The position numbers and the translations under genes were made by a program. The notes beneath the pieces are model-generated. The model was not told the origin of the DNA and ran no database searches. It saw nothing but the letters and a program-made list of their open reading frames with translations. A stretch of DNA of 24,000 nucleotides from Rickettsiales bacterium (GTDB taxonomy: Bacteria; Pseudomonadota; Alphaproteobacteria; Rickettsiales; UBA8987): assembly GCA_033762595.1 (NCBI GenBank), contig JANRLM010000010.1, positions 9,494 through 33,493 of the forward strand, read 5' to 3'. Shown one piece after another: positions 1 through 20,196 of the stretch. The number at the start of each line of letters is the position of its first letter. The stretch's first letter is position 1.

Positions 1-344
1 GTTTTGCCAGTGCCGTTAACCCCAACAAACATAAGGCATAGGGGCTTTTTAGAAAAATCTAAACCATTATCAACCCCAGATTTACTTAGGATATTTAAGA
101 TTTCTTCAGAAAGGCTTTGCTTTATTTCTTCTTCAGTAACTTCTTTATCAAATTTCTTTTTTCTAATGCCTGCGATAATTTCAGCGGAAGTTTTAACCCC
201 CATATCAGCCATAATTAAAATTTCTTCTAGCTCATTAAGGGCTTCATCATCTAATTTTCTTTTGGTAAAAACGCTAGAAATTCCCTCGCTTATAGCCTTG
301 GAAGATTTGCTCAAACTCTCTTTTATTCTTCTAAATAAATTCAT
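1..344 (-). CDS. ftsY: Signal recognition particle receptor FtsY, N-terminal part (gene runs off the left edge of the window)
   Basis: Absent from the ORF track because there is no stop in the window. My minus-strand translation from the ATG at 344-342 reads MNLFRRIKESLSKSSKAISEGISSVFTKRKLDDEALNELEEILIMADMGVKTSAEIIAGIRKK...KKPLCLMFVGVNGTGKT. That is an FtsY-type N-domain followed by the GxxGxGKT P-loop. The plus-strand ORF 4..348 is its antisense shadow. Confidence 0.8.
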   Translation of the reverse strand, partial: MNLFRRIKESLSKSSKAISEGISSVFTKRKLDDEALNELEEILIMADMGVKTSAEIIAGIRKKKFDKEVTEEEIKQSLSEEILNILSKSGVDNGLDFSKKPLCLMFVGVNGTGK

Positions 345-348
345 TTAA

Positions 349-996
349 TTACGACTTCAAATAATTTACAAATTTCTCAAATGCTTTAGCACGATGAGAA
401 ATTTGATGCTTAAATTCTGGCTCAATTTCAGCAAAAGTTTTGTTATGCCCTTCCGCAATAAAAATTGGATCATAACCAAAGCCGGCATCTCCGCGGGGTG
501 GAAAGGTTAGCGTGCCAAAAACTTTACCTTCAAAAATTTTATATTCACCATTTGGAAAATACAAACATAAAGCACAAGTAAAATTTGCAGAAAGCAATTT
601 TTTGTTATAATCCGCGATATCTTGCCCTTCATATCTAGTATTTATCCCGTTTTCATTTAATGCATCTTCAACTTTTTGCATTGCAAGGTTGAAATCTTTT
701 TTAACACCACCCCATCTCGCAGAGTAAATCCCCGGCATATTATTTAGTGAATGAACTTCAATTCCAGAATCATCTGAAAGACATATTTTACCAGATTTTT
801 CAGAATAATATTTAGCTTTTATAAGGGCATTTTCAGCGAAGGAATCACCAGTTTCTTCAGGCTCATCTATATTGCCAAGAATTTCTGTTGATAGAATTTT
901 ATAATTAAAAGGCGTCAGCAAATCCTTTATTTCCTTAACTTTTCCTTTGTTATTACTTGCAATTAATATCTCTTTTATCAAATTTTTATTATTCAT
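349..996 (-). CDS. rdgB: Non-canonical purine NTP pyrophosphatase (dITP/XTP pyrophosphatase, Ham1/RdgB family)
   Basis: 215 aa. N-terminal ILIASNNKGKVKEI, then FGYDPIF and ISHRAKA near the C-terminus, which is the typical RdgB/Ham1 layout. Only 4 nt separate it from the ftsY start. Confidence 0.85.
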   Translation of the reverse strand: MNNKNLIKEILIASNNKGKVKEIKDLLTPFNYKILSTEILGNIDEPEETGDSFAENALIKAKYYSEKSGKICLSDDSGIEVHSLNNMPGIYSARWGGVKKDFNLAMQKVEDALNENGINTRYEGQDIADYNKKLLSANFTCALCLYFPNGEYKIFEGKVFGTLTFPPRGDAGFGYDPIFIAEGHNKTFAEIEPEFKHQISHRAKAFEKFVNYLKS

Positions 997-1005
997 TTTT
1001 CTAAA

Positions 1006-1917
1006 CTATAAAACTAAAGCTAATACACTTATTATAATTAGGCTAATTCCTAATTTTTCAAGGTTTTTTATTTTTTCCTTAAATATAATTCTAGTTGCAA
1101 GTAGTGAGAAAATCAACTCAACTTGCCCAACCGCATTTACAAGTGATGCTGTTTGAATTGAATAAGCACTATACCAAAAAATTGAGGTTACAACACCTAT
1201 GACACCTAATAAAATTAACTCTTTAAGAGAAGAATAATTTTTGAAATCTTCAATTATAATTAGATTTTTAATTTTTAGGTAAATGGTTAAAAATGTAGCT
1301 TGAATGAGCATCACAGAAAATAATGTTAAGCCCGCTGAAATTGTGAATTTTGATTCCAAGCTAAGAGAGGCCTCCCTAATAAAAATTGCGGTGAAAGCGT
1401 GGAATATTCCAAGCGTTAAGCCAATTAGAGAGGTTTTTGTTTTTAAGTTTTCAAAACTTAAACCTCCAGAATTTCCAAGTAAAGAGAGGATTATTACACC
1501 TGAAGAGCCAATAATGATTGCGAAAAATTCAAACAAACTAATTTTTTCAGCAAATAAAATATAAGCAAAAATCGCCGCTAAAATTGCCTCAGTTTTGCTA
1601 TATGCTATGCCTACTGCAAAATTTCTATCTCTTAAAAGTGAGGTTTGCATTATAGAGCCAACTATCTGTGAAAGTCCTGCTAAACTGCAATAAAATAAGA
1701 ATTCAAAAGAGATGCTTGGTAAATTAAAATGTGAAATTGTTAAAAAAATAAGATAGATAAAAGCGATAGGAACGCCAAATAAAAACCTTCCCCAAGTTAT
1801 AAAAATTGGTGAGTATTTTTTTGCTAAATCTTTTTGCAAGCACGTTCTGACTGATTGCGAAATTGCTGCCAAAACTGCTAAAATTATCCAAGTTTCTAAC
1901 ATTTTTTTATGTTGCAT
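1006..1917 (-). CDS. EamA/DMT-superfamily membrane transporter
   Basis: 303 aa and almost entirely hydrophobic, with about 10 helix-length segments in a two-half arrangement typical of drug/metabolite transporters. Substrate unknown. Confidence 0.7.
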   Translation of the reverse strand: MQHKKMLETWIILAVLAAISQSVRTCLQKDLAKKYSPIFITWGRFLFGVPIAFIYLIFLTISHFNLPSISFEFLFYCSLAGLSQIVGSIMQTSLLRDRNFAVGIAYSKTEAILAAIFAYILFAEKISLFEFFAIIIGSSGVIILSLLGNSGGLSFENLKTKTSLIGLTLGIFHAFTAIFIREASLSLESKFTISAGLTLFSVMLIQATFLTIYLKIKNLIIIEDFKNYSSLKELILLGVIGVVTSIFWYSAYSIQTASLVNAVGQVELIFSLLATRIIFKEKIKNLEKLGISLIIISVLALVL

Positions 1918-2032
1918 TTAGAATGCTTATATTGAGTTGCTGAGGATTTTCAAAATAATTGTAAATTTTTCTTGAAATAAGGTAAATTTTGGATATTAGT
2001 TCACTTTCTTACAGCAAAGACAGCTTCAATTT

Positions 2033-2107
2033 GGCCCCGTCGTCTAGCGGTTAGGACATCGCCCTTTCACGGCGGTAGCACGGGTTCGAGTCCCGTCGGG
2101 GTCACCA
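2033..2107 (+). tRNA. tRNA-Glu (anticodon UUC), CCA encoded
   Basis: 75 nt: GGCCCCGTCGTCTAGCGGTTAGGACATCGCCCTTTCACGGCGGTAGCACGGGTTCGAGTCCCGTCGGGGTCACCA. The 7-bp acceptor stem GGCCCCG/CGGGGTC has one G-U pair. The anticodon loop is CTTTCAC, and the T-arm is CACGGGTTCGAGTCCCGT. It aligns position by position with the E. coli tRNA-Glu architecture. Confidence 0.92.
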
Positions 2108-2198
2108 TCTTAAGTTATTGATTTACATATTATTTCTTAAATTTCTTATTTGCAAAATCTCTTCTAAAAATTTGATTTGGGTAATATTTGGGTAATAA
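2090..2198 (+). repeat. Direct repeat copy A: tRNA-Glu 3' end plus ~90 nt downstream (candidate attL-side)
   Basis: GTCCCGTCGGG (2090-2100) and TGATTTACATATTATTTCTTAAATTTCTTATTTGCAAAATCTCTTCTAAAAATTTGATTTGGGTAATATTTGGGTAATAA (2119-2198) recur at 6220-6314, at roughly four-fifths identity by eye. Confidence 0.65.
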
Positions 2199-2371
2199 GC
2201 CGATTGAAAAATTCGCTACTATAACCATATAAAAAACACCCCCTAGGGGAGATTTTGAAATTTTGATTAGGCTTTATAGTGGTGCTTATACAAGATAAAC
2301 ACTAATATTGTTTTGGTACAATTTATTAATGGGGGGGGTAGCCCCTTGCAAGGGTGGGGTATAATATAGAT

Positions 2372-2734
2372 GGGTAGAGGCGGTTACACACTTTAGAGTT
2401 AAGGAATGTTTATTTTGATTGTTAAAAAGCAAATGGGGCAATAAGATAAATCTTAATGAATCTTAAAACTTGTTTGACTAACCTGAAATAATCTATTAGC
2501 CTTTCTTTTGTGCAGGGAAATCTGCATTGGGTGTCGAAACCTATTCAAGAAGCGGTTTACAACATATACCGTATAAAAATATGCCCTTCCTAGTCTTCAT
2601 GGCTGGGAGGTGGTTATACATGTCCAAGCTGTAAGGCTAAAAATAGCCACAGTCGCACTTCTTGTCGGCTTTCGAACTCCCAGCTACCATGAAAATATCT
2701 AACTAACCTTAAGATAAACGCTTGGTAGCTTTTT
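2372..2734 (+). ncRNA. Candidate structured RNA or long structured leader (unclassified)
   Basis: An ORF-free stretch that is visibly GC-richer than its surroundings. A perfect TATAAT lies at 2360-2365. Local hairpins: TGCAG-GGAAAT-CTGCA at 2511-2526 and CTGT..GGCT-AAAAAT-AGCC..ACAG at 2629-2652. A 9-bp long-range helix pairs GGCTGGGAG (2601-2609) with CTCCCAGCT (2677-2685). A terminal hairpin GCTACCA (2683-2689)/TGGTAGC (2723-2729) is followed by TTTTT. I recognise no known RNA family. Confidence 0.2.
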
Positions 2735-2761
2735 ATTATAATTAATAAAAGGGAGCTTTCT

Positions 2762-2953
2762 ATGAAGTCTAAAATTCTAACAATAATAATTGCAACTGGC
2801 GTTTTTCTTTCTGTAAGCAGTGCATTTGCTCAAGGCTATCAAAGGGTGAATGGCTATTACAAAAACAACGGAACTTATGTTCAGCCTCACTTTAGAACTC
2901 GTGCAGATGGCAACCCATATAATAATTATGGCAGTAGCTTAAACGGCAATTAA
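2762..2953 (+). CDS. Small secreted protein (signal peptide plus Gly/Tyr/Asn-rich mature part), function unknown
   Basis: 63 aa. MKSKILTIIIATGVFLSVSSAFA-QG is a classical Sec signal with an AxA site. SD GGGAG sits 6 nt upstream of the ATG, a TATAAT lies at 2737-2742, and a strong terminator follows. Confidence 0.6.
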   Translation: MKSKILTIIIATGVFLSVSSAFAQGYQRVNGYYKNNGTYVQPHFRTRADGNPYNNYGSSLNGN

Positions 2954-2960
2954 TTTATTG

Positions 2961-2992
2961 GGCTAGTGATGAAAAGTTACTAGCCTTTTTTT
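2961..2992 (+). terminator. Rho-independent terminator after the small secreted-protein gene
   Basis: Stem GGCTAGT(GA)/(TT)ACTAGCC spans 2961-2985 and is followed by a run of 7 T (2986-2992). Confidence 0.65.
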
Positions 2993-3045
2993 ATGTTAGT
3001 TTTTTCTGCACTTCTCTTACTTTTCTTGGTCTTGATTGCTTATCT

Positions 3046-3101
3046 TATCTACTCCAGCATAAAAGGAATAGAAGATGATTTAGATGGGTATTGAAGATAA
3101 A
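3046..3101 (+). repeat. 56-bp direct repeat, copy a (inner boundary repeat of the quorum-sensing cassette)
   Basis: TATCTACTCCAGCATAAAAGGAATAGAAGATGATTTAGATGGGTATTGAAGATAAA. This is identical to 6044-6099 except for 3 substitutions and has no indel. Confidence 0.8.
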
Positions 3102-3191
3102 AAATTTAATGTTTTTGCATGTAAAATAAATTGCAAAACCCTATAAATATTGGTTGCTGCCATTCTATTAAAACTAATTAGTTTGCTGTTT

Positions 3192-3374
3192 TCAAAAATA
3201 AGAAAGCAGACCTTCCATAATTACATCTTCATCTTGTGCATCAAATTTATCTATAAAATTTTGATGATATTTTTCAGGATAGATAATATTATCTTTTGTA
3301 TGAAATAATTCAATTCTAGGTTTAAAATCCATTTTTAATTGACAATTAATGTTTTTATAGCTTAGGTAGAACAA
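3192..3374 (-). CDS. Hypothetical small protein divergent from the XRE gene (46-60 aa depending on start)
   Basis: The track ORF starts at a TTG (3374). An internal ATG at 3332-3330 would give 46 aa (MDFKPRIELFHTKDN...). Neither start has a clear SD and no motif is recognisable. Weak call. Confidence 0.25.
   Translation of the reverse strand: MFYLSYKNINCQLKMDFKPRIELFHTKDNIIYPEKYHQNFIDKFDAQDEDVIMEGLLSYF
3335..3349. promoter_or_regulatory. 15-bp perfect palindrome TTAATTG-A-CAATTAA overlapping a consensus -35 (TTGACA, 3339-3344); candidate operator/promoter of the xre-luxR operon
   Basis: Read directly from the sequence. It lies ~45 nt upstream of the XRE start codon, in the divergent intergenic region. 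The downstream -10 is only weak. Confidence 0.3.
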
Positions 3375-3392
3375 AATCCAAGTTGTTCAACC

Positions 3393-3743
3393 ATGAATAG
3401 CAAAATTTTAGAAATCAGAGAAAGTATTTCTAATAACTTAAAAGAGCTCAGATTATCAAAAGGGCTGAGTCAAAAAGATGCTGGAAATGTTCTTTCTATT
3501 TCTCCTCAACAATATCAAAAATATGAAAAAGGGCAAGATAGAATGTCTGCTGATTCATTAATTCATCTTCTAAATGAGTTAGATGTAGATGTTTCAGTTT
3601 TCATGAATGAAGTTTACAAAAATTGTAATAATAATGATAAAAAAGAATCCTCAGATTTGGAGTTAATTGGTCTATTCAGCAATATTTCAAAAGAAAATAA
3701 GGAATTTTTATTAACAATGATGAAAATTATGTCTGGTAAATAA
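3393..3743 (+). CDS. XRE-family helix-turn-helix transcriptional regulator
   Basis: 116 aa. LKELRLSKGLSQKDAGNVLSISPQQYQKYEKGQDRMSADSLIHLL is a canonical HTH_3/Cro-C1 motif. Its stop is 17 nt before the luxR-type gene, so the two are probably co-transcribed. Confidence 0.75.
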   Translation: MNSKILEIRESISNNLKELRLSKGLSQKDAGNVLSISPQQYQKYEKGQDRMSADSLIHLLNELDVDVSVFMNEVYKNCNNNDKKESSDLELIGLFSNISKENKEFLLTMMKIMSGK

Positions 3744-3760
3744 CCAAAATATTTTAGGCA

Positions 3761-4501
3761 ATGTCGATATTAGAGGAGTTCATATTAAAATCTAATAGAA
3801 TCAATAATATTGATGAGCTTTTTATTGAATATAGAAAAACCCTTGAATATTTCGGTTTTGATAAAGTTGTTTATAGTTTAATTACTGATCACTACAAAGC
3901 TGGTCTTCAGGCCGGTCATGCAATAATGGGTAATTACCCGCAAGATTTTTTAAAACATTATATGGAAAAGGGCTATCAAAAGCTTGATCCTGTTCCCAAG
4001 CAAGCATTTAAGAGCGTTAAGCCATTTGCTTGGAAATCCATCTCAGAAGAAAGAGAACTTAACAAAGATGAGTTGCTAGTTATGAATGAAGCAGATGATG
4101 CTAAACTTCTTAGCGGAGTTGGAATACCTCTTTATGGTGCAAATGGGGAAATAGCAGGGGTTGGAATTGCAAGCTCAGAAAGAGATTTAGATTTGAATAT
4201 TGATATTTTATCAATGTTAAGGGCTATTACGCATCAATTTCACTTAGTTTACTTGGATTTATGCAAACGCCCAAATAATGATAATAAAATTGCCTTAACT
4301 AATAGAGAAAGAGAAATATTGTTGTGGTATGCATCTGGCAAGAAAGATGGCGATATTGCAGATATTATTGGAATATCATATGATTCTGTAAGGTTTCACT
4401 CAAAGAATATATTTAAGAAATTAGATGTTAATGACAGGGTTTTTGCAGTCGTAAAAGCCATAAGACTTGGATTAATAACTCCGAATTATGTTTTCAACTA
4501 G
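3761..4501 (+). CDS. luxR: LuxR-family quorum-sensing regulator (N-terminal autoinducer-binding domain plus C-terminal GerE/LuxR HTH)
   Basis: 246 aa. The C-terminus LTNREREILLWYASGKKDGDIADIIGISYDSVRFHSKNIFKKLDVNDRVFAVVKAI is the LuxR-type HTH. The N-terminal ~170 aa has the length and the Y/W/D-containing pattern of autoinducer-binding domains. Confidence 0.85.
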   Translation: MSILEEFILKSNRINNIDELFIEYRKTLEYFGFDKVVYSLITDHYKAGLQAGHAIMGNYPQDFLKHYMEKGYQKLDPVPKQAFKSVKPFAWKSISEERELNKDELLVMNEADDAKLLSGVGIPLYGANGEIAGVGIASSERDLDLNIDILSMLRAITHQFHLVYLDLCKRPNNDNKIALTNREREILLWYASGKKDGDIADIIGISYDSVRFHSKNIFKKLDVNDRVFAVVKAIRLGLITPNYVFN

Positions 4502-4503
4502 AT

Positions 4504-4525
4504 ATCCTACCTACCTTGGTAGGAT
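4504..4525. promoter_or_regulatory. lux-box-like inverted repeat ATCCTACC-TACCTT-GGTAGGAT upstream of the luxI-type gene
   Basis: Perfect 8-bp arms with a 6-bp spacer. It contains CT-N12-AG, the minimal las/lux-box pattern. Its centre is ~60 nt upstream of the luxI ATG, which fits a position near -42 relative to a short-leader promoter. It starts 3 nt after the luxR stop, so a terminator-hairpin role cannot be excluded, although no T-run follows. Confidence 0.45.
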
Positions 4526-4573
4526 GAATTAACTTTTGCTTTAAGGCATTCTCCCAAAAAACAGGGAGAGTAT

Positions 4574-5227
4574 ATGACTATAGAATGCGTTACCTTAGAA
4601 ACCAATCATCTTTTTGATGGCAACCCAATAGCAGAACAGCATAAACTTAGATATAGAAGTATAATTCAAAGACAAGGCTGGGAAGTGCCAACAATAAGAA
4701 ATCTTGAATTTGATCAATATGACAACCCTGCAACCACTTACCTCATTTGGCGAGATTATAATGGAATTGCGAGAGGTGTTTCTCGTTTATATCCAACAGA
4801 TAGACCATATATGTTAAAGGAAGTTTTTCCAAAATTAGCTGAAAATGTTCCACTTCCATCATCAGTAGATATATGGGAAGGAACAAGATTCTGCGTAGAT
4901 AAAGGCTTAGATGCCCCTTTAAGAAAAAGAATTATTCAAGAAATTATCCTAGGTTATTTAGAATATGGCTTGCAAGCTGGAATTAAAAAATATGTTGGTA
5001 TTATGCTTCCAATCTATTGGAATAATATATTTGAAAAAAATGGCTGGAAAGTTAGCTATTGGAGTGATGTTATAACAATCGATAACGGCGATAGAATTCG
5101 CTCTGGCGAGGTTGAAGTTTCAGAGGAAAATCTCGCTTTAGTAAGAAAAAAAACCGGTATCAATGAGTCAATTATAAACTATGGTAAATATGAAGGTGAA
5201 TATGCAAACAACAGAAAAGCAATCTAA
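4574..5227 (+). CDS. luxI: LuxI-family acyl-homoserine-lactone synthase
   Basis: 217 aa. RYRSIIQRQGWEVP...EFDQYD, GVSRLYPTDRPYMLKEVF and WEGTRFCVDK match the conserved LuxI-family blocks (R..F..R..W, E.D.YD, RL.PT...ML, WE.SRF.V). SD GGGAGA lies upstream. Confidence 0.85.
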   Translation: MTIECVTLETNHLFDGNPIAEQHKLRYRSIIQRQGWEVPTIRNLEFDQYDNPATTYLIWRDYNGIARGVSRLYPTDRPYMLKEVFPKLAENVPLPSSVDIWEGTRFCVDKGLDAPLRKRIIQEIILGYLEYGLQAGIKKYVGIMLPIYWNNIFEKNGWKVSYWSDVITIDNGDRIRSGEVEVSEENLALVRKKTGINESIINYGKYEGEYANNRKAI

Positions 5228-5495
5228 AAAAGTTGATGTTTCTACATTTATTAGTGCATTATACTTTTTGGTATCTGAATCAAATAAAGCCGGCAGTAAA
5301 AGCATCACTAAAATTTTAGAAAAAGCTTATTTGGATATAATATCTACCGCCAAGGAAGATGAATCCCTCTCTTTCGGAGAAGATATGTTAACAATGATGA
5401 ATTTTATTGGTAAATATTGCCAAAAAAATGACTTTGAAAGAAACGAATTTCTAAATATTGCAGAAAAAATTAATGAATTAAAAGCTTTGAATTAA
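5202..5495 (+). CDS. Hypothetical ~97-aa helical protein overlapping the 3' end of luxI
   Basis: The track ORF runs 5181..5495. I prefer the ATG at 5202 because AGGTG sits just upstream. It overlaps the luxI stop by 26 nt, which suggests translational coupling. No motif is recognised. Confidence 0.45.
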   Translation: MQTTEKQSKKVDVSTFISALYFLVSESNKAGSKSITKILEKAYLDIISTAKEDESLSFGEDMLTMMNFIGKYCQKNDFERNEFLNIAEKINELKALN

Positions 5496-5545
5496 ATTTG
5501 GTAAAATCTTAAAGACAATTTAATTCGAATTTGCATCAATAATTT

Positions 5546-5842
5546 CTAAAGCCTTTTTCTGAGTTTGCAAATTTCATCAAAAATAAATTCAATTTCGTCA
5601 ATGAGATTATAAATTTCTTTATCAGATAAAAAATCAGTTTTGAAGATTTCTTTACTTTTTAGGTCAACTGACTTTTCAAGAAGAGCCTCAAGCCTTTTTT
5701 GAAGGGTTTCAGGCAGTTGGTTAATTCTAAAATGAAGCAAAGATTGCAAACTTGCGTTGAGCTTTTTTCTAAAATCAGGCTCTTCTTTTTCTAGATCTTC
5801 AATTGCGAGGGCAAAAGCGAAGTAAGATTCTTCAATATTCAT
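5546..5842 (-). CDS. Hypothetical 98-aa acidic helical protein
   Basis: The ORF has AAGG ~8 nt upstream of its ATG and converges on the luxI-linked ORF. No motif is recognised. Confidence 0.45.
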   Translation of the reverse strand: MNIEESYFAFALAIEDLEKEEPDFRKKLNASLQSLLHFRINQLPETLQKRLEALLEKSVDLKSKEIFKTDFLSDKEIYNLIDEIEFIFDEICKLRKRL

Positions 5843-5851
5843 AAACTTGCC

Positions 5852-6046
5852 TTAACTTGAAATATTTTTATGATTAGATTTATTGCCAAATTTTTCAAGA
5901 ATATAATCTATAACACCAACATTTCTAATTAAACCAATTAGTTGGTTATAGCTTCCTTTTACATAGAAATTTTTAGGGTCTGATACCCAATAATACTCTT
6001 TTAGGATAGATTTTAGGTCTATCAGAAGTAATTTTCGTGAACCTAT
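5852..6046 (-). pseudogene. 5'-truncated gene remnant ending 10 nt upstream of the 98-aa ORF
   Basis: A minus-strand frame is open for 64 codons (...LKEYYWVSDPKNFYVKGSYNQLIGLIRNVGVIDYILEKFGNKSNHKNISS*) with no ATG, GTG or TTG start. The frame closes (TAG) at the edge of repeat copy b (6044). That is consistent with truncation at an insertion junction. Confidence 0.25.
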
Positions 6047-6099
6047 CTACTCCAGCATCAAAGGAATAGAAGATGATTTAGGTGTGTATTGAAGATAAA
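6044..6099 (+). repeat. 56-bp direct repeat, copy b
   Basis: TATCTACTCCAGCATCAAAGGAATAGAAGATGATTTAGGTGTGTATTGAAGATAAA. Matches 3046-3101 at 53 of 56 positions. Confidence 0.8.
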
Positions 6100-6219
6100 T
6101 AGCAATCTAAATTAAACCTATAGACATTATAAAAAAACTTGGGGGTATTTTTGGGGGTATCAGTTAAAATGAGATGGCGGATTATCCCTATATATCAATT
6201 TCTTAATAAATTAAGGCGT

Positions 6220-6314
6220 GTCCCGTCGGGCACTGATTTATATCTTATTTATTAAATTTTTTGTTAGCAAAAGCTCTACTATAAAATTTGATTTTGGTAA
6301 TTTTTGGGTAATAA
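6220..6314 (+). repeat. Direct repeat copy B: degenerate tRNA-Glu 3' fragment plus downstream sequence (candidate attR-side)
   Basis: GTCCCGTCGGGCAC followed by TGATTTATATCTTATTTATTAAATTTTTTGTTAGCAAAAGCTCTACTATAAAATTTGATTTTGGTAATTTTTGGGTAATAA. It aligns with 2090-2198. It lacks the ACCA end and ~14 nt relative to copy A. Confidence 0.65.
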
Positions 6315-6422
6315 TATTTTTTTGAATTATAACTTCTTTAGCCATACTCAATCGCTTCAAATTTTCCGCTTGAGATATTAAAAAAACTCTGAAATAAAAG
6401 TTGAAAATTTTCTATTATTATA

Positions 6423-6929
6423 ATGAAAGATAAAAATATAGATTACGCAAAGCTCATAGATAAAGCCATGCATGATGTGGTTAAGTCTGTTTTAAGGCAA
6501 ATTACAAAAGATGGCTTGCCAGGGCAACATCATTTTTTCATCACCTTCAAAACTGATGCCCAAGGCGTTATGATGTCTGATGAATTACGCAAAAGATACC
6601 CAAAAGAGATGACTATTGTGCTTCAGCACCAATTTTATGATTTAGAAGTTGAAGATCAATATTTCTCAATAGTTTTGAGCTTTGATCATGTAAAACAAAA
6701 TATTACAATACCATTTTCTGCCCTTGTTTCTTTTGTTGATCCAAGTGTAAAATTCGGTTTGCAGTTCAATACGATAATGCTTGAAGATGCAGATTCTAAT
6801 GCGGAGCTTATCTCTGAGGGCAATAAAAAGCCTGCTTCAAAAAAGAATTCTTCCAAGCAAAGCAAAAAAATAGATGGTAATTCAGGCTCTAATGTTGTAA
6901 CCCTAGATTCATTTAGGAAAAAAGATTAA
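6423..6929 (+). CDS. sspB: ClpXP adaptor SspB (alphaproteobacterial type)
   Basis: 168 aa. HHFFITFKT..GV, YPKEMTIVLQHQFYDLEV, IPFSALVSFVDPSVKFGLQF, a disordered Lys/Ser-rich linker, and a C-terminal VVTLDSFRKK ClpX-binding-like tail. This matches my recollection of alpha-type SspB. Confidence 0.7.
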   Translation: MKDKNIDYAKLIDKAMHDVVKSVLRQITKDGLPGQHHFFITFKTDAQGVMMSDELRKRYPKEMTIVLQHQFYDLEVEDQYFSIVLSFDHVKQNITIPFSALVSFVDPSVKFGLQFNTIMLEDADSNAELISEGNKKPASKKNSSKQSKKIDGNSGSNVVTLDSFRKKD

Positions 6930-6939
6930 TGGAGGCAAA

Positions 6940-7203
6940 ATGGTTGATTCAATTAAAGATACTATAGATTCTCTGCCTAAAACTAAGGGCAAGGGAGAAT
7001 CTGTGGAGTTTATGAAAGATGAGCAATATATTGATTCTTGCCAAGAAATTATCAAAGAAGCCTTGCAGAAAGGCTATGATGTCATTCACATGGAAAACGG
7101 CGATATTATTACAACTGGCACAAAAGTTATTGTTACGCAATTCCGCTGGGATGCTGATAAACAAAAGATGGTAAAAGTTCTCAGCAAGCAAAAAGGTGAG
7201 TGA
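6940..7203 (+). CDS. Small conserved-looking hypothetical protein (87 aa)
   Basis: A strong SD (GGAGG) lies 5 nt upstream of the ATG and 10 nt after the sspB stop, and a clean terminator follows. No family is recognised. Confidence 0.6.
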   Translation: MVDSIKDTIDSLPKTKGKGESVEFMKDEQYIDSCQEIIKEALQKGYDVIHMENGDIITTGTKVIVTQFRWDADKQKMVKVLSKQKGE

Positions 7204-7231
7204 TTATTTAATAAATTATCCATAAATTTCT

Positions 7232-7259
7232 AAGCCCTTCTTTTGAAGGGCTTTTTTAT
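7232..7259 (+). terminator. Rho-independent terminator
   Basis: AAGCCCTTC-TTTT-GAAGGGCTT, a 9-bp stem, followed by TTTTATT. Confidence 0.75.
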
Positions 7260-7297
7260 TTCCGAAATTATAAAATATTTATTGCAAAATTGATTAA

Positions 7298-7346
7298 AAA
7301 ACCATATAATTCCATTTTATACCAAAAAATTCCAATTAATTCCATT
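7298..7346. promoter_or_regulatory. Five 10-bp-phased (A/T)CCA direct repeats upstream of mraZ; candidate MraZ operator array
   Basis: CCA occurs at 7302-04, 7312-14, 7322-24, 7332-34 and 7342-44, an exact 10-nt period. Three of the copies read AATTCCA. The array ends 11 nt before the mraZ GTG start. Confidence 0.4.
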
Positions 7347-7356
7347 TAAGGTTTTT

Positions 7357-7803
7357 GTGGGGATATTCATTTCAAATTACGAAAATAAGCTTGATGCGAA
7401 GGGTAGAATTTCTGTGCCGGCTCTATTTCGCGAGGCTTTGAAAAATGAGGATTTTAACGGAATTATTGCTTACCAATCTTTTATAAACCCATGCATTGAG
7501 GCGTGCGGAATGGAAAGAATTGAGAAGCTAGCAAACTCAATAGATAGCCTTGACCCTTACGCTGATGAGCGAGATGCCTTCGCAACCAGCATTCTAGGGG
7601 GAAGCAAACAAATTGCGATTGATAATGATGGCAGAATTATCTTGCCTGAAGAATTAATATCATTCGCAGGGCTTAAAGATAAGGCGATTTTTGTTGGTAA
7701 AGGTTTTACTTTTGAAATTTGGAATCCAGAAAAATTTGAAAAATATTTCAATAATTCTCGCGAAATTGCAAAAGTAAATCGTGGAAAGTTAAGGTTGGGT
7801 TAG
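7357..7803 (+). CDS. mraZ: Transcriptional regulator MraZ
   Basis: 148 aa with a GTG start. Two SpoVT/AbrB-like repeats are present (LDAKGRISVPALFREAL and IDNDGRIILPEELISFA). It is the first gene of the dcw block. Confidence 0.9.
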   Translation: MGIFISNYENKLDAKGRISVPALFREALKNEDFNGIIAYQSFINPCIEACGMERIEKLANSIDSLDPYADERDAFATSILGGSKQIAIDNDGRIILPEELISFAGLKDKAIFVGKGFTFEIWNPEKFEKYFNNSREIAKVNRGKLRLG

Positions 7804-7820
7804 GGTTTTCTGAAGATGTC

Positions 7821-7841
7821 ACCCCGCATTTATTGCGGGGT
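7821..7841. repeat. Palindromic element ACCCCGCA-TTTAT-TGCGGGGT (family copy between mraZ and rsmH)
   Basis: Perfect 8-bp stem with a 5-nt loop. The identical 21-mer occurs at 11016-11036, and related copies lie at 16203-16222 and 16292-16315. Confidence 0.8.
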
Positions 7842-7964
7842 AAAAATATTGCGTTAAAGAGAAAAAAACAAAAAATGAATTTGGAAAATTTACAGATATA
7901 TAGTTATAAGTTTGAAGATTTTTCTTATATTTTTGAACAAAATTATCGTAGAAAAATTACTTAT

Positions 7965-8921
7965 ATGCAAAGTGAAGAATCACATATTTCGGTATTACTA
8001 AAAGAAACTTTGGAGCAACTAAATCCGCAAGATGGAAAAACCTATCTTGATTGCACATTCGGGGCAGGGGGGCATTCAAGAGCCATTCTTGAGAGTGCGA
8101 ATTGCAGAGTTATTGCACTTGATAGAGATATTCACACCAAGCAATATGCAGAAGAATTGAAGCAAGAATTTGGTGATAGATTTATTTATTTGAACTCAAA
8201 ATTTTCTGATTTAGATGAAGCTTTGAGGTCAATAAATGTTAGTGAAGTTGATGGAATTTTGTTTGATATAGGCGTTTCTTCAATGCAAATTGATACGCCA
8301 AGGCGTGGTTTTTCCTTTCAGGAAGAAGGCCCACTTGATATGAGAATGAGCGATGATGGGCTTAGTGCCGAAGATTTTATCAATGAAGCAAAAGAGGAAG
8401 AAATTGCAGGTGTAATTTTTCGATATGGTGATGAAAGAAAATCTCGTCAAATTGCTTCGGCAATAATTCGTGAAAGAGCTAAAAAAAGAATTACAAAAAC
8501 TACGCAACTTGCGAATATAATTCTTTCAGTTTTAGGCAGGGGCAAAGATGGTATTCACCCTGCAACCCGCACTTTTCAAGCAATCCGTATTTATATTAAT
8601 GATGAACTTGATGAGTTAAAAATTGCCTTAAAAAAAGCAACGCAATTTATAAAAAATGAAGGAAGAATTTGCGTTATTACTTTTCACTCTGGTGAAGATA
8701 TAATCGTAAAAAATTTTTTCAGAGAAATTTCTGGCTATAATTCTGGCGTATCAAGATATTTGCCATCGCTTGAAACTCAAGCAAATCAACATTTTTCTGA
8801 GTTTGAGTTGGTAACAAGAAAGCCAATTTTACCAAGCGATTTTGAAATAAAAAATAATGTTAGAGCGAGATCAGCTAAATTAAGAGTTTTACAAAGAAAA
8901 AAAATGAGTTTAATAAATTAA
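7965..8921 (+). CDS. rsmH: 16S rRNA (cytosine1402-N4)-methyltransferase RsmH (MraW)
   Basis: HISVLLKETLEQL near the N-terminus, DCTFGAGGHSRAIL (SAM pocket), DIGVSSMQID, FHSGEDIIVK. I place the start at the ATG at 7965 (318 aa). The track start at 7833 would translate through the palindromic element and add 44 residues that do not look like RsmH. Confidence 0.88.
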   Translation: MQSEESHISVLLKETLEQLNPQDGKTYLDCTFGAGGHSRAILESANCRVIALDRDIHTKQYAEELKQEFGDRFIYLNSKFSDLDEALRSINVSEVDGILFDIGVSSMQIDTPRRGFSFQEEGPLDMRMSDDGLSAEDFINEAKEEEIAGVIFRYGDERKSRQIASAIIRERAKKRITKTTQLANIILSVLGRGKDGIHPATRTFQAIRIYINDELDELKIALKKATQFIKNEGRICVITFHSGEDIIVKNFFREISGYNSGVSRYLPSLETQANQHFSEFELVTRKPILPSDFEIKNNVRARSAKLRVLQRKKMSLIN

Positions 8922-8923
8922 GA

Positions 8924-9256
8924 ATGACAATGATAAACTCAAAAAAAATTATATATATTATTTCTTTCTTAGTGTTGGTTTTCCTAGTGTATTTCACTGA
9001 AAACCAAGTTGATTCTCTACGCAAAGAAATAAAAAAAACTAACTACAAAATGTCAAGTTATGAAGAAGAAATTCAGATTCTTGAAGCAGAATGGAGTTAT
9101 CAAAATAATCCAGAGAGGCTTAAAAACTTGGTTATGAGGCTCAGTTCAGAGGTTGTTATGCAATCACCAAAATATTTTCAATTCACTGATTTGAAAAATC
9201 TTCCTGAGACAAATATTTATTTTTCTACCAATACTAACTCACCTAGCTTGAGATAA
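8924..9256 (+). CDS. ftsL: Cell division protein FtsL (alpha-type)
   Basis: 110 aa. One N-terminal TM helix is followed by a coiled-coil with LEAEWSYQNNPERLKNL. It sits in the canonical position between rsmH and ftsI. Confidence 0.65.
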   Translation: MTMINSKKIIYIISFLVLVFLVYFTENQVDSLRKEIKKTNYKMSSYEEEIQILEAEWSYQNNPERLKNLVMRLSSEVVMQSPKYFQFTDLKNLPETNIYFSTNTNSPSLR

Positions 9257-9258
9257 AA

Positions 9259-10941
9259 TTGATGCGAAAGCCCGTTAAACTCAACCTTTCCCTAGATGGC
9301 TCAATTAGTAGCGTAATTGATAAAAGTAAAAATAGAATCATTTTATATTCTGTAATTGTTTTTCTAATTTATTTTGCAATCGCATTTAAGCTTATAAAGC
9401 TAACCTTCTTTTTGGAGCTGGAATATGAAGGTGCAAAATTTTATAACGAACAATTTGAAAAGGCTGAAAGGCTTCCTATCTATGATAGAAACGGCATCTT
9501 AATTGCAACAAATCTTAAGACAAATTCACTTTATGCAGATGCACGCAATTTGAAAAACCCAACAATGATTGCAAGGCAATTAAGAAAAATTTTTCCTGAA
9601 TTAAACGAGCAAGATTTGATAAAAAAACTTTCTTCTAAAAAAGCATTTGTGTGGATAAAAAGAAATCTTCACCCAATGGAAATGAAGGCAGTGAACGATC
9701 TTGGTATACCTTACCTAAATTTTGATGTTGAGGTAAAAAGAACTTATCCGCATCTAAATTTGTTCTCACATACGCTTGGAATGGTTGGGGTTGACGCACA
9801 AGGCTTAACAGGATTTGAAAAATATATTGATGGCATTGATGAGGCTGAGTTTGAAATTCATTCAGCAAATGGTAGGGTGGATACCTCTTTAGATGTCAGA
9901 ATACAAAGCCTTCTCCACACTGAGCTTCTAAATCAGATGAAAAAGCACGAGGCAAAATTTGCAAGCGGCCTTGTGATGGATGTTAATAGTGGGGAAATTT
10001 TAGCGCTAGTGAACTTGCCAGATTATGACCCAAACACCCCGCAATCTCTAACAATTTCAAACCAATTTAATAGCATAACGCTTGGAAATTATGAGATGGG
10101 TTCTACTTTTAAGCCAATTACATTCGCAATTGGTTTAGAAAAAAAATTAGTAAATCTTAAAACCGTGATTGATGCAAGCGAGCCAATTAAAATTGGTAGG
10201 TTCAAAATCTCAGATTACAAAGGTAAATTTAGGCCGCTCGCTCTGCCTGAAATTATGATGTACTCCTCAAATATAGGCACAGCTAAAATTGCGGAAATCA
10301 TAGGTGCAAGCACAATGCAGGAATATTATAAAAAGCTTGGTTTTTATGAAAAAGTGGGGATAGAAATTAAGGAAAAATCTATTCCAATGATGCCAAAAAA
10401 TTGGAATTTATCAACTACACTAACGGCTTCTTTTGGTCATGGGGTTTCAGTAACACCACTGCATGTTGCAATAGCAAATGCAACGCTTGTAAATGGTGGT
10501 ATGCTTGTTAAGCCAACAATTATTAAAAACCATAAAAGTAAAAACAACCCTAGAATTTTTAGTGAAGAAACTTCTGAAACAATGAGAAAATTATATAGGC
10601 TTGTTGTAACTGGTGGCTCTGGCAAAAGTGCGGAAGCTAAGGGATATTTTGTTGGCGGAAAAACTGGAACTTCTGAAAAAGTAGTTGATGGAAAATATGT
10701 TCCGGGCGTGGTTATTGCATCTTTTGTAGGAATGTTTCCAATGAATAAACCAAGATATTTAGTGCTTGCGATTTTTGATGAGCCAAAACCAACCCCTGAT
10801 ACTTACGGCTATGCAACTGGTGGCTGGGTTGCAGCCCCTGTTGTTTCAAGGGTGATTGAAGGAATGGCACCAATTCTAAAAATCAGCCCAATCAATTACG
10901 AAGATGAAACACTAATCAAAAGATTTGATTTGGGGTATTAG
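9259..10941 (+). CDS. ftsI: Peptidoglycan D,D-transpeptidase FtsI (PBP3)
   Basis: 560 aa. N-terminal TM anchor, then the transpeptidase motifs STFK (GSTFKPIT), SSN (YSSNIG) and KTG (GKTGTSE). The start is either TTG 9259 or ATG 9262. Confidence 0.88.
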   Translation: MMRKPVKLNLSLDGSISSVIDKSKNRIILYSVIVFLIYFAIAFKLIKLTFFLELEYEGAKFYNEQFEKAERLPIYDRNGILIATNLKTNSLYADARNLKNPTMIARQLRKIFPELNEQDLIKKLSSKKAFVWIKRNLHPMEMKAVNDLGIPYLNFDVEVKRTYPHLNLFSHTLGMVGVDAQGLTGFEKYIDGIDEAEFEIHSANGRVDTSLDVRIQSLLHTELLNQMKKHEAKFASGLVMDVNSGEILALVNLPDYDPNTPQSLTISNQFNSITLGNYEMGSTFKPITFAIGLEKKLVNLKTVIDASEPIKIGRFKISDYKGKFRPLALPEIMMYSSNIGTAKIAEIIGASTMQEYYKKLGFYEKVGIEIKEKSIPMMPKNWNLSTTLTASFGHGVSVTPLHVAIANATLVNGGMLVKPTIIKNHKSKNNPRIFSEETSETMRKLYRLVVTGGSGKSAEAKGYFVGGKTGTSEKVVDGKYVPGVVIASFVGMFPMNKPRYLVLAIFDEPKPTPDTYGYATGGWVAAPVVSRVIEGMAPILKISPINYEDETLIKRFDLGY

Positions 10942-10977: not shown

Positions 10978-11036
10978 GGCAAGTATATATTTAAGCTCCA
11001 TAACCTCCAATAGTCACCCCGCATTTATTGCGGGGT
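10978..11036 (+). repeat. ~59-bp repeat unit ending in the ACCCCGCATTTATTGCGGGGT hairpin
   Basis: GGCAAGTATATATTTAAGCTCCATAACCTCCAATAGTCACCCCGCATTTATTGCGGGGT. It aligns at ~80% by eye with the reverse complement of 16201-16260. A 5' fragment recurs at 15944-15967. Confidence 0.7.
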
Positions 11037-11087
11037 TAATTGTTGAAATTACTTATAAACCTTAGGTTATGAGCTTGTTTTATGGTT

Positions 11088-15942: not shown

Positions 15943-16315
15943 AGGTAAGTATAGATTTTATTAAATTATCTGCTGTTTTTCTTCTATAATATCACCCCCG
16001 CTTCAGGCAGTAACATCTGCCTTCAGTATTGCGGGGGTTAAAGAGATTGTTAGTAATATAAGACTTCATTCCCGCCCCGTGTTAAGCACGGGGTAAACTC
16101 CAGCGGGAATCCATAAAATACACTGGATACCCGCTTTCGTGGGTATGAATAGAAAAGGTTGAATAATTCCAGCGAGTTGCTTTATGCTTAACCCCTATAA
16201 ATACCCGCAATAAATGCGGGGTAACAATTGTTGGCTATTGAGCTTAAATCTATACCTACCGAAACTAAGGGGTAGAAACACCTCAACTTTCGCCCAGCAA
16301 TAAATGCGGGGTGAT
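15943..16315. repeat. Cluster of at least five palindromic (REP/RPE-like) elements in an ORF-free spacer
   Basis: Elements:
- 15991-16040: ACCCCCGC...GCGGGGGT stem with a 29-nt insert.
- 16068-16110: nested ATTCCCGC/GCGGGAAT around CCCGTG-TTAAG-CACGGG.
- 16127-16146: ATACCC...GGGTAT.
- 16203-16222 and 16292-16315: CCCGCAATAAATGCGGGG-type copies in reverse orientation. Confidence 0.8.
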
Positions 16316-18228: not shown

Positions 18229-19125
18229 ATGGAATATATAAAATCAAATTTATCTGAACCTTTAGCAAAGAAAATTATAGGTAAAAAAGAAAATGCAGAG
18301 AAATATCTTTTAATGTTTAACGATATTAGGCCAATAAAAGATATAAAATTTAAAAATATTTCTAAGGGAAAAAACTCAGGCAATTTAATATTAGATGAGT
18401 CAAATGAAATTTGGAAATTAATTGTTGACAATTGGGATTATGAAGTCAGTAAAAAAATAATTAGAGAAATATTTAAAACTACTAACAAATATAAAAGTGG
18501 AAAGGTAGCGAATGATGCGATGGTTTTACTAATTGAGGAGTGGAATAATTTAAATCTTGGTAAAATTCAATGGCCTTTTTCACAGGGTGCATTTGATGAA
18601 TTTGTTCAGAGGGTTAATAGGGGAGAAGAGCTTGGTCAATATAAAGATGAAAAAGTAAAGTTAGCAGCCGTTCAGTATAGAAGAATAAAAGAAATTAACA
18701 CAGTAAGAAATGACTTTATAGAAACTTTAATTTTTGAGAAGAATGAAAATATACTTCCTACTCTTAACCATAGACGAGGAGTTGATTATTTCATAAATGG
18801 TTTTTCTTACGACCAAAAAGTAGCAAAAAGTCCAACAAATGAATTCAAAAAACACTACGGAGATAATTGGAGGGAAAAAGCCATCCAAGAACCCGCCCTA
18901 GTTGCAAAATATCTTTATCAATATCAAGATGAGGGAAGATTTGGGAGTGATCCAAGATTATTAGTTGTTTATTTAGACGAAGATGTTTCTATAGAAAAAA
19001 TTAGAGAAATAATTAATAAAACCGATTTAAGCAACCCTATTGAAATAAATTTTTCTTTTAAGCATAAGAATCAAGGCGAGGTGAGCTATAAAGTAAGTTG
19101 TTTTATAATTTTATTATATAACTGA
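18229..19125 (+). CDS. Unknown protein; candidate type II restriction endonuclease partner of the adjacent methyltransferase
   Basis: 298 aa with SD AAAGGG upstream. Its stop is 3 nt before the methyltransferase start. The only hint of a nuclease is a possible D...(D/E)xK arrangement (RGVDYFINGFSYDQKVAK). The assignment rests mainly on gene context. Confidence 0.4.
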   Translation: MEYIKSNLSEPLAKKIIGKKENAEKYLLMFNDIRPIKDIKFKNISKGKNSGNLILDESNEIWKLIVDNWDYEVSKKIIREIFKTTNKYKSGKVANDAMVLLIEEWNNLNLGKIQWPFSQGAFDEFVQRVNRGEELGQYKDEKVKLAAVQYRRIKEINTVRNDFIETLIFEKNENILPTLNHRRGVDYFINGFSYDQKVAKSPTNEFKKHYGDNWREKAIQEPALVAKYLYQYQDEGRFGSDPRLLVVYLDEDVSIEKIREIINKTDLSNPIEINFSFKHKNQGEVSYKVSCFIILLYN

Positions 19126-19128
19126 TAT

Positions 19129-20196
19129 ATGAACTATATAGGTAGCAAATTATCACTTTTGGGCTTCTTAGAAGAATCAATAAATAAAGTGGTTGATGAT
19201 AATTGTGCTGTATTTTGTGATTTATTTGCAGGAACAGGAATAGTGGGTAGCTATTTTAAAAAAAGAGGTTATAAAATAATTGCAAATGATATTCAATATT
19301 ACAGCTATGTCTTAAATAAGCATTACATTTCTAACGTAGGTGAATTAGAATTTATTAAATTATCTGGGGAAATTAATCAACTAAAAGACATAAAGATACC
19401 TTATAGAAAATATTTTGTATGTAGTTATTTGTCAAAACTAAACGGAGTAAAGGGGTTTATCTATGATAATTATTGTTTGGGCGGAACTATAAATAGTAAC
19501 TCTCCTAGGCAATATTTTTCTGATTTAAATGGGATGAGATGCGATGCAATCCGTCAAAAAATTGAATTTTGGAAAGAAAAAGGGTTATTATTAGAAAATG
19601 AATATTTTTTTTTAATAGCTAGCCTTATAGAGTCTGTTGATAAACACGCAAACACGGCTTCTGTTTATGGAGCTTTTCTTAAAAATCTAAAAAAATCAGC
19701 ACAAAAAGATTTTATTTTGAAGCCAGCAGAAATAATTATAAATGATAAACAGCACAATGTTTTTAATGATGATATTAATAGAATATTAGAAAGAGTAAGT
19801 GGCGATATTTTTTATTTAGATCCCCCATACAATCATCGCCAATATGCTACAAATTACCATATTTTAGAAACTATATCCAAGTATGACGCACCTAAAATTA
19901 AAGGAAAAACTGGACTGAGAGAATACCATAATCAAAAATCTAACTATTGCTCTAGATCTAAAGTAATAGACACCTTCAAAGAAACAATAATTAAATCTAA
20001 GGCGAAATATATATTTCTTAGTTACAATAACGAAGGGTTAATGAATTTTAATGATATAAAAGAGATTATGAGCTTACGAGGTAAGTATGGGTATTTTGTT
20101 AAAGAATACAATCGCTTTAAATCTGATAAATCTGAAAATAGAAATTATATTTCATCTAAAACACAAGAGTATTTGCACTATGTTGTTTGTAATTAG
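19129..20196 (+). CDS. Dam-family (D12 class, alpha-type) N6-adenine DNA methyltransferase
   Basis: 355 aa. N-terminal YIGSK, the SAM motif DLFAGTGIVG followed by ANDI, and the catalytic FYLDPPY. The motif order FxGxG ... DPPY is that of alpha-class enzymes. Confidence 0.8.
   Translation: MNYIGSKLSLLGFLEESINKVVDDNCAVFCDLFAGTGIVGSYFKKRGYKIIANDIQYYSYVLNKHYISNVGELEFIKLSGEINQLKDIKIPYRKYFVCSYLSKLNGVKGFIYDNYCLGGTINSNSPRQYFSDLNGMRCDAIRQKIEFWKEKGLLLENEYFFLIASLIESVDKHANTASVYGAFLKNLKKSAQKDFILKPAEIIINDKQHNVFNDDINRILERVSGDIFYLDPPYNHRQYATNYHILETISKYDAPKIKGKTGLREYHNQKSNYCSRSKVIDTFKETIIKSKAKYIFLSYNNEGLMNFNDIKEIMSLRGKYGYFVKEYNRFKSDKSENRNYISSKTQEYLHYVVCN

Follow-up and report, generated by a model that had tools for sequence, protein, structure and literature searches.

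Cis-mobilizable elements (CIMEs) and tandem accretion were first described for the ICESt1-related elements of Streptococcus thermophilus (reviewed in PMC5704250). The route to CIMEs and integrative mobilizable elements runs through integration, decay, and a second integration, and a CIME is defined as having kept attL and attR while its genes for integration and transfer are gone (PMC5704250). Here, we analyze a stretch of 24,000 nucleotides (the window; Rickettsiales bacterium, assembly GCA_033762595.1, contig JANRLM010000010.1, positions 9,494–33,493, forward strand), in which the segment directly following a tRNA-Glu gene, at 2108–6314 and hereafter called the islet, is probably what decay has left of elements from an integrase/AlpA family that integrated site-specifically into this gene at its 3' end. 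By this family, we mean the small tyrosine-integrase/AlpA integrative elements of AT-rich Rickettsiales-like bacteria. The islet is a further case of a well-known type of scar; it involves no new mechanism and leaves the understanding of island formation unchanged.

The islet conforms to the definition of a CIME, with one of its two core copies (copy B) degenerate: Like CIMEs, it carries attachment (att)-type repeats, has no integration or transfer genes, and stands in tandem with what seems to be a related remnant at the 3' end of the target. It differs from the ICESt1-related CIMEs in its host, an uncultured AT-rich alphaproteobacterium, in the degenerate state of the distal core, and in the size of the second element (~100 nt). 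Islands of the P4/CP4-57 type enter tRNA genes at the 3' end by means of a tyrosine integrase, have an AlpA regulator, and likewise show a duplicated tRNA 3' end and tandem arm repeats, and an AlpA-family gene lies beside att in two further loci described below (L014 and L054), whereas the element in the window has neither an integrase nor an AlpA. Of the traits of tRNA islands, the intact tRNA at the boundary, the distal repeat of its 3' segment, and the arm-type site pairs are found at the sequence level; an integrase gene and a gene for a directionality factor or AlpA inside the element are lacking.

The putative integration target is an intact tRNA-Glu(UUC) gene on the plus strand (2033–2107; ARAGORN; Rfam tRNA, 62.6 bits), and the final 21 nt of this gene (2087–2107, +) constitute att-core copy A. 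The 11-mer GTCCCGTCGGG within this core (2090–2100) recurs at 6220–6230 and nowhere else when the 24 kb are scanned with up to one mismatch, against a chance expectation of 0.02. A gapped local alignment pairs 2087–2198 with 6217–6314 at a score of 59.5 (500 shuffles: mean 13.3, standard deviation 2.3, maximum 23.5), and no other 151-nt window of the 24 kb comes near this score. The core part of the alignment matches CGAGTCCCGTCGGG of copy A to CGTGTCCCGTCGGG of copy B at 13/14 positions, followed by a 2-nt gap, CAC, and a 13-nt gap. Core copy B, identified by the 11-mer scan and the alignment as a decayed tRNA-Glu 3' end (CGTGTCCCGTCGGG--CAC; 6217–6233, +), thus differs from copy A by one substitution and two small deletions (2 and 13 nt) beside the identity block, the kind of decay expected of a core outside a functional tRNA. 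Reading of the sequence upstream of 6217 revealed no remnant of the 5' two-thirds of the tRNA, and the duplication begins inside the T-loop. Positions 6218–6233 of copy B also form a 6-bp hairpin, which was flagged as terminator-like by a scan.

Each core is followed by an arm, and in the arm part of the alignment 70 of 81 columns are identical (~86%). Arm copy A (P'-type; 2108–2198, +) ends in the tandem TTTGGGTAAT-A-TTTGGGTAAT at 2176–2196, with a period of 11 nt. Arm copy B (6234–6314, +; ~86% identical to 2120–2198) ends in the tandem TTTTGGTAAT-T-TTTGGGTAAT at 6292–6312, which reads TTT(T/G)GGTAAT twice with the same period and is overlapped by a promoter-like TTGATT-16-AATAAT found by the scan (6288–6315). 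A further tandem, read directly from the sequence, consists of two copies of TTGGGGGTAT with a 12-nt period (6139–6160, +); it precedes core copy B by 56 nt and is a candidate P-arm site pair. An earlier inspection of the letters and open reading frames (ORFs) of this DNA, here called the sequence-only reading, had noticed the recurrence of the 11-mer, a likeness of about four-fifths over the ~80 nt after each copy, the tandem motif ending both copies, and the related tandem at 6139–6160. These observations all hold: The 11-mer is unique to its two sites in the 24 kb, the likeness of the arms is somewhat closer than had been judged by eye, and the tandems are present with the periods given above. 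As a side observation, which we do not treat as evidence, 10 of the 18 GGGTA(A)T sites in the window fall in the 4.2-kb islet and 8 in the other 19.8 kb; these sites include 2357, 3086 (within an inner repeat described below), and 5983 (minus strand).

To place these repeats in the context of the chromosome, five related loci were compared: L001, from the closest relative, and L004, L039, L040, and L041; the nearest other genome has an SspB identity of 80%. By blastn, L001 matches the window in three colinear blocks (1–2107, 6360–7201, and 7271–8920). The first, comprising ftsY-ham1-eamA-tRNA-Glu, extends up to the 3' end of the tRNA, where window position 2107 corresponds to position 7027 of L001, and the last contains mraZ-rsmH. 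No match to L001 was found by blastn for 2108–6359, and the variable interval relative to L001 spans 2108 to ~7270; the content between tRNA-Glu and mraZ is wholly different in the two genomes. In L001, a DUF6538 integrase fragment directly follows tRNA-Glu, and toxin–antitoxin genes and thiC also precede mraZ, whereas L004 has a complete integrase, an HTH_17 gene, and a restriction-modification pair after its tRNA-Glu. One tRNA-Glu site thus carries different islands in L001 and L004, and because an integrase fragment or an integrase lies there in both, the 3' side of tRNA-Glu is a recurrent integration site in this group. A second att copy delimiting the L001 and L004 islands was sought, and nothing longer than 15 nt was found. 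The sequence-only reading had named a gene order common to all relatives, or a generic dispersal of the 80-nt segment, as outcomes that would speak against an island; the gene order is not shared, and the segment occurs in two copies in the window and shows no dispersal in the relatives.

A scan for the tandem motif over 185,579 species, each represented by a single genome, returned 26 loci, of which L014, from an uncultured Rickettsiales metagenome-assembled genome (MAG), was the sole relevant match. This contig has a partial tRNA-Glu at its end, followed by 69 nt, an identical 22-nt TTTGGGTAATATTTGGGTAAT, and a convergent 81-amino-acid (aa) ORF that matches Phage_AlpA (PF05930, E = 7e-21). 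The tandem motif has the same offset from tRNA-Glu as in copy A of the window, and the first 27 nt past the tRNA (2108–2134) are in common, with 87% identity over 83 nt including the tRNA part. L014 is far more distant from the window than L001 (FtsI ~46% identical by tblastx); because the distant L014 has arm sequence and the closer L001 has none, the arm seems to travel with the element and not with the chromosome. No locus with two motif copies 4.1 kb apart was found in the scan of the genome collection. A metagenome scan with a tRNA-anchored pattern gave 10 matches, none with the tandem motif after such a tRNA-Glu, and a scan of viral contigs gave 7 matches, in none of which the 110 nt before the motif show a tRNA 3' end. 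Separately, tandem TTTGGGTAAT-N-TTTGGGTAAT was seen 30–60 nt downstream of tyrosine-integrase genes in several Clostridia contigs (L011, L016, and L028) and 40–60 nt past tRNA-Val in two Saccharibacteria genomes (L006 and L025); the likeness may be coincidental, or it may reflect an arm-site motif that recurs across phyla.

For the L014 AlpA, a single close homolog (P0242, 75% identity) was found; it lies on L054, a Logan contig from SRR13608703 (10,214 nt, 32.7% GC). Both ends of this contig extend exactly 30 nt into one 44-nt segment of tRNA-Glu, with a 16-nt overlap; Logan assemblies use k = 31, and 30 nt is the k - 1 overhang expected for a repeat-bounded unitig. The 44-nt core reaches from the anticodon loop to the discriminator end of tRNA-Glu. 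In the orientation of the tRNA, L054 starts with the core, 59 nt, CCGTAATATATCCGTAATAT, orf68, and alpA (reverse), continues after alpA with GmrSD, restriction-modification, Vsr, a weak Rep_trans match, and DUF736, and ends with an integrase (reverse) whose ATG adjoins a second CCGTAATATATCCGTAATAT, then ~110 nt and the core again. CCGTAATATATCCGTAATAT occurs exactly twice in L054, 59 nt past the core and at the integrase ATG, and this layout is, as read from the sequence, that of a core flanked by arm-type sites. The integrase contains the domains Phage_integrase and Phage_int_SAM_3 (PF00589 and PF14659) and has no match to Arm-DNA-bind_3, a domain that is present in the L004 integrase. As an observation on L054 itself, positions 1–10,214 form an apparently complete and compact defense-gene island, with Pfam matches including DNA methylase, NmeDI_C, GmrSD_N, and Vsr.

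The likeness of the window to L054 lies in the target tRNA-Glu, in a GTAATAT tandem with an 11-nt period ~60–70 nt past the core, and in a second pair on the other arm, to which 6139–6160 is a candidate analog through the integrase-proximal tandem of L054. The two motifs share the 11-nt period and the GTAATAT core but are not the same (CCGTAATAT in L054 vs. TTTGGGTAAT in the window), and, in contrast to the window, L054 has an integrase, an AlpA, and defense genes (restriction-modification, Vsr, and GmrSD) and no quorum-sensing genes.

With L054 as the template, an element of this family would comprise a tRNA-Glu core and two arms, each with tandem ~10-nt sites one helical turn apart; one site pair would adjoin the integrase start codon, and the other would lie on the alpA side, ~60–70 nt past the core. 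Copy A (2087–2198) would then represent the tRNA core and alpA-side arm of the most recent element, 6139–6160 its candidate integrase-side arm, and copy B (6217–6314) what remains of an older resident from the same family, its displaced core and alpA-side arm. The newer element would have entered the tRNA gene and displaced the core and arm of the older one (tandem accretion), and deletions may then have taken the integrase, alpA, and any transfer genes to produce a CIME-like islet, in which the cargo left would be a small secreted peptide, a 33-aa membrane peptide, and an XRE-LuxR-LuxI acyl-homoserine-lactone cassette. This cassette is enclosed by a direct repeat of 56 nt, which duplicates the 3' end of the 33-aa ORF and would reflect a separate Campbell-type recombination. 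A later rearrangement would have cut the older element ~45 nt past the tandem sites and put the genes sspB-DUF2671 there. We favor tandem accretion as the simplest account because a second arm follows the distal core, where an attL/attR pair has chromosome. The order of these events and the present immobility of the islet are what we infer from features observed directly, namely the repeats and their significance, the homology breakpoints, the L014 motif, the L054 architecture, and the absence of recombinase genes.

The sequence-only reading had seen an integrase-type footprint at tRNA-Glu, and the homology break at 2107, the integrases in the relatives, L014, and L054 all speak for it. The two copies that it took as the boundaries of an insertion are indeed att-type repeats but do not form a simple attL/attR pair, and tandem accretion fits them better. 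The 80 nt that it had regarded as the downstream sequence of the tRNA are instead an element (P') arm, given that L001 is without this sequence and L014 has its first 27 nt and its tandem. Its suggestion that the tandem motifs could be arm-type sites gains support from the pair shared with L014 and the pairs on both arms of L054, and these motifs would presumably bind the integrase or an AlpA-type directionality factor.

The search for recombination genes agrees with what the sequence-only reading had reported from the absence of an integrase or transposase ORF. No recombinase ORF was found in the 24-kb window, no Pfam integrase domain occurs in any ORF tested, and the ORFs of the islet have no match to the AlpA/HTH_17 families. 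Several results weigh against the assignment of the islet to the integrase/AlpA family and should be considered together. In tblastn searches, the integrases of L004, L001, and L054 had no match in 2108–6359, not even a pseudogene, and the L054 AlpA had none in the window at E ≤ 5; because no remnant of an integrase or AlpA is detectable, the link to L054 and L014 is drawn from non-coding architecture only. Between TTGGGGGTAT, the candidate P-arm motif, and the motif of the P' arm, 3/10 positions differ, whereas the arms of L054 share one motif. The identity block of L054 starts at the anticodon loop (44 nt) and that of the window at the T-loop (~21 nt), for which reason the sublocation of the crossover may differ. 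There is no empty site among the relatives compared, of which the nearest has only 80% SspB identity, and the counts of repeat copies cover the 24-kb window. The trinucleotide distance of the islet (0.137) lies inside the range of the window (0.05–0.19), and the GC content at third codon positions (GC3) is as in housekeeping genes. The compositional contrast with the flanks that the sequence-only reading had proposed as a check is therefore missing, the islet being indistinguishable from them, and its composition gives no support for a recent foreign origin. Given the loss of all recombination genes and the host-like composition and GC3, we take the remnant to be probably old and fixed.

Four other explanations of the repeats and the islet were weighed. 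In a single integration, copy A would be attL, copy B attR, and the 80 nt an original chromosomal flank captured in attP, e.g., by an earlier imprecise excision; this would account for there being just two direct copies, which bracket accessory genes, with no recognizable second element to the right of copy B. We consider it unlikely, as the closest relative is without the 80-nt sequence after its tRNA-Glu, the distant L014 has its first 27 nt and the tandem motif beside AlpA, so that the sequence behaves as element DNA, and the equivalent position in L054 is an element arm. The absence of any trace of the tRNA 5' two-thirds upstream of 6217, and a start inside the T-loop as in att cores, bear on a segmental duplication, by which a second tRNA-Glu with its downstream region would have been copied, the 5' part lost, and accessory genes gathered in between. 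Tandem tRNA-Glu genes do occur in other bacteria (e.g., L047) and the deletions in copy B fit neutral decay, but this explanation also leaves aside the attP-type tandem pair upstream of copy B and the association of the motif with AlpA in L014 and an integrase in L054, and it seems quite improbable to us. We give still less credence to a regulatory or dispersed repeat of the host, whether a promoter or operator or an element resembling repetitive extragenic palindromes (REP) or miniature inverted-repeat transposable elements (MITE), with the 11-mer of copy B as merely the stem of a terminator. The terminator-like 6218–6233 and promoter-like 6288–6315 were flagged, and the window holds another dispersed palindromic repeat family; however, the 80-nt segment has only two copies in 24 kb, the tandem motif is found in relatives only at the homologous tRNA-Glu position of L014, and the similarity to the tRNA reaches past the hairpin (13/14 plus CAC).

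It is similarly hard to credit that the islet is functional and mobilizable in cis or trans, with a cognate integrase supplied from another part of the genome. Both arms survive, as does a perfectly matching 11-nt stretch of the core, and CIMEs can be mobilized by related elements (PMC5704250), but core copy B is altered by one substitution and two deletions, its composition sets the islet in no way apart from the host, the right-hand side is rearranged, and no integrase is encoded within the 24 kb. A more specific form of this idea is suggested by ICEMlSymR7A of Mesorhizobium, a 502-kb conjugative symbiosis island in which LuxR/LuxI-type quorum sensing was shown experimentally to activate excision (PMC4755241). 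Like that element, the islet combines a LuxR/LuxI pair and a helix-turn-helix (HTH) regulator on a tRNA-integrated element, and by analogy it could be a mobilizable CIME, in which an L054-type integrase elsewhere would use the TTTGGGTAAT arms and XRE-LuxR-LuxI would act as its own excision switch. If true, this would be the first mobile element controlled by quorum sensing in a Rickettsiales-like lineage; we regard it as a long shot, since, unlike in ICEMlSymR7A, nothing ties the cassette of the window to excision and the cassette has flanking repeats of its own. The reading preferred here is thus a decayed remnant left by tandem accretion at tRNA-Glu.

The right-hand limit of this remnant is set by a rearrangement. 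Beyond arm copy B, a junction of 45 nt (6315–6359) leads into the native upstream region of sspB, where homology to L001 starts at 6360, and the position of this junction, shortly beyond the tandem sites, indicates that the rearrangement truncated the older element. The sspB-DUF2671 block itself (6360–7203, +; SspB by Pfam at 6423–6929, +) is orthologous to that of L001 with 77.7% nucleotide identity, a divergence the same as in the flanks; its other junction lies at 7204–7270. The genes are co-directional in the order ham1-ftsY-(x)-sspB-DUF2671 in 5/5 relatives (L001, L004, L039, L040, and L041), whereas in the window sspB-DUF2671 is inverted and stands between arm copy B and mraZ. By this comparison of gene order, the block is relocated from its ancestral position after ftsY. 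The window begins inside ftsY, and the DNA following ftsY, where a second copy of sspB might sit, lies outside it. The earlier statement that housekeeping genes resume after copy B is hence correct in that such genes do follow, but sspB-DUF2671 is a displaced block and not the native continuation.

The content of the islet is of the accessory type, and the secreted peptide, XRE, LuxR, LuxI, and small ORFs that the sequence-only reading had listed between the copies were all recovered. The arm of copy A is followed by an ORF-poor stretch (2199–2761) without any ORF above 51 aa. Within it, 2601–2693 (+) folds into a stable multi-hairpin element (z-score -4.05) and has a full-length but sub-threshold match to Rfam RF02221 (sRNA-Xcc1; 30.1 bits vs. 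a gathering score of 53, E = 0.024 for 4.4 kb), a family reported from integrons, transposons, plasmids, a genomic island, and APSE phages; the element lies ~70 nt upstream of the secreted-peptide ORF. That ORF (63 aa; 2762–2953, +) has a signal-peptide-like N-terminus and no family match, and it is followed by a terminator-like hairpin (2960–2986) and by the hydrophobic 33-aa ORF MLVFSALLLLFLVLIAYLIYSSIKGIEDDLDGY (2993–3094, +). A candidate match to Rfam HPnc0260 at 2070–2220 (-) was discarded, as its 48 bits are below the gathering score of 59 and are explained by the tRNA-antisense 3' part of the model.

The 3' end of the 33-aa ORF coincides with the left copy of an inner direct repeat of 56 nt (3046–3101, +), which had not been noticed before. 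The right copy (6044–6099, +) holds a 3' fragment of a homolog of this ORF (…IYSSIKGIEDDLGVY*), the 5' part of which is gone. The copies are 95% identical with sharp edges (alignment score 50, shuffles 10.7 ± 1.9) and bracket a 3-kb segment with XRE, LuxR, LuxI, and two further ORFs, which points to the Campbell-type footprint of a separate recombination or to a mosaic of two related elements. A 64-codon frame on the minus strand beside the inner repeat (5855–6046) was set aside as possibly due to chance, given no family match and only repeat-type matches in giant proteins.

The quorum-sensing cassette (3393–5495, +; Pfam) consists of XRE (3393–3743, +), LuxR (3761–4501, +; Autoind_bind PF03472, E = 1e-25; GerE PF00196, E = 3e-15), a palindrome, LuxI (4574–5227, +; Autoind_synth PF00765, E = 7e-24), and a 104-aa ORF (5181–5495, +); a 98-aa helical ORF without family match follows on the minus strand (5546–5842). 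The domains of both the synthase and the receptor of LuxI/LuxR acyl-homoserine-lactone quorum sensing are thus predicted to be present. The palindrome at 4503–4526, between the luxR stop and the luxI start, is a perfect 8-bp inverted repeat with a 6-nt spacer (ATCCTACC-TACCTT-GGTAGGAT) and could, judging by its sequence and position, serve as a LuxR site of the lux-box type or as the terminator of luxR. Among the LuxI homologs (n = 284), the closest other than itself has ~60% identity. The LuxR-LuxI-small-ORF module is also found in L042 (1214–3889) and L043 (6273–9326), which have a higher GC content and unrelated contexts, with LuxI ~60% and LuxR ~46% identical; in both, the downstream ORF is 103 aa long and homologous to the 104-aa ORF of the window (26% identity, E = 1e-5), and the L043 module adjoins a serine-recombinase fragment.

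Two further observations concern the rest of the window. The dispersed palindromic repeat family GTCACCCCGCATTTATTGCGGGGTAAA and its variants occupy intergenic positions at 7818–7844, 11013–11039, 16071–16097, 16199–16225, and 16289–16315, and a similar CCCCGC…GCGGGG hairpin is seen in L001 near 6560–6600. A low-GC pair (0.28) at 18229–20196, consisting of a 298-aa ORF of unknown family and a D12-class N6-adenine DNA methyltransferase, may be a small restriction-modification islet; within the 24 kb, trinucleotide deviation peaks (0.19) in the 4.2-kb windows that cover this pair.

It should be noted for annotation that a rearranged housekeeping pair beside an att scar, as is sspB-DUF2671 here, causes the rule that an island ends where housekeeping genes resume to misplace its boundary. 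The most useful outcome of the analysis is the arm-motif signature together with an intact reference element, L054: The arm motifs (nnGTAATAT with an 11-nt period) could locate islands in MAGs in which the integrases are lost. For the bacteria themselves, the comparison shows that tRNA-Glu is a hotspot of recombination in uncultured AT-rich Rickettsiales-like lineages, and it shows a route by which an acyl-homoserine-lactone quorum-sensing cassette reached such a genome.

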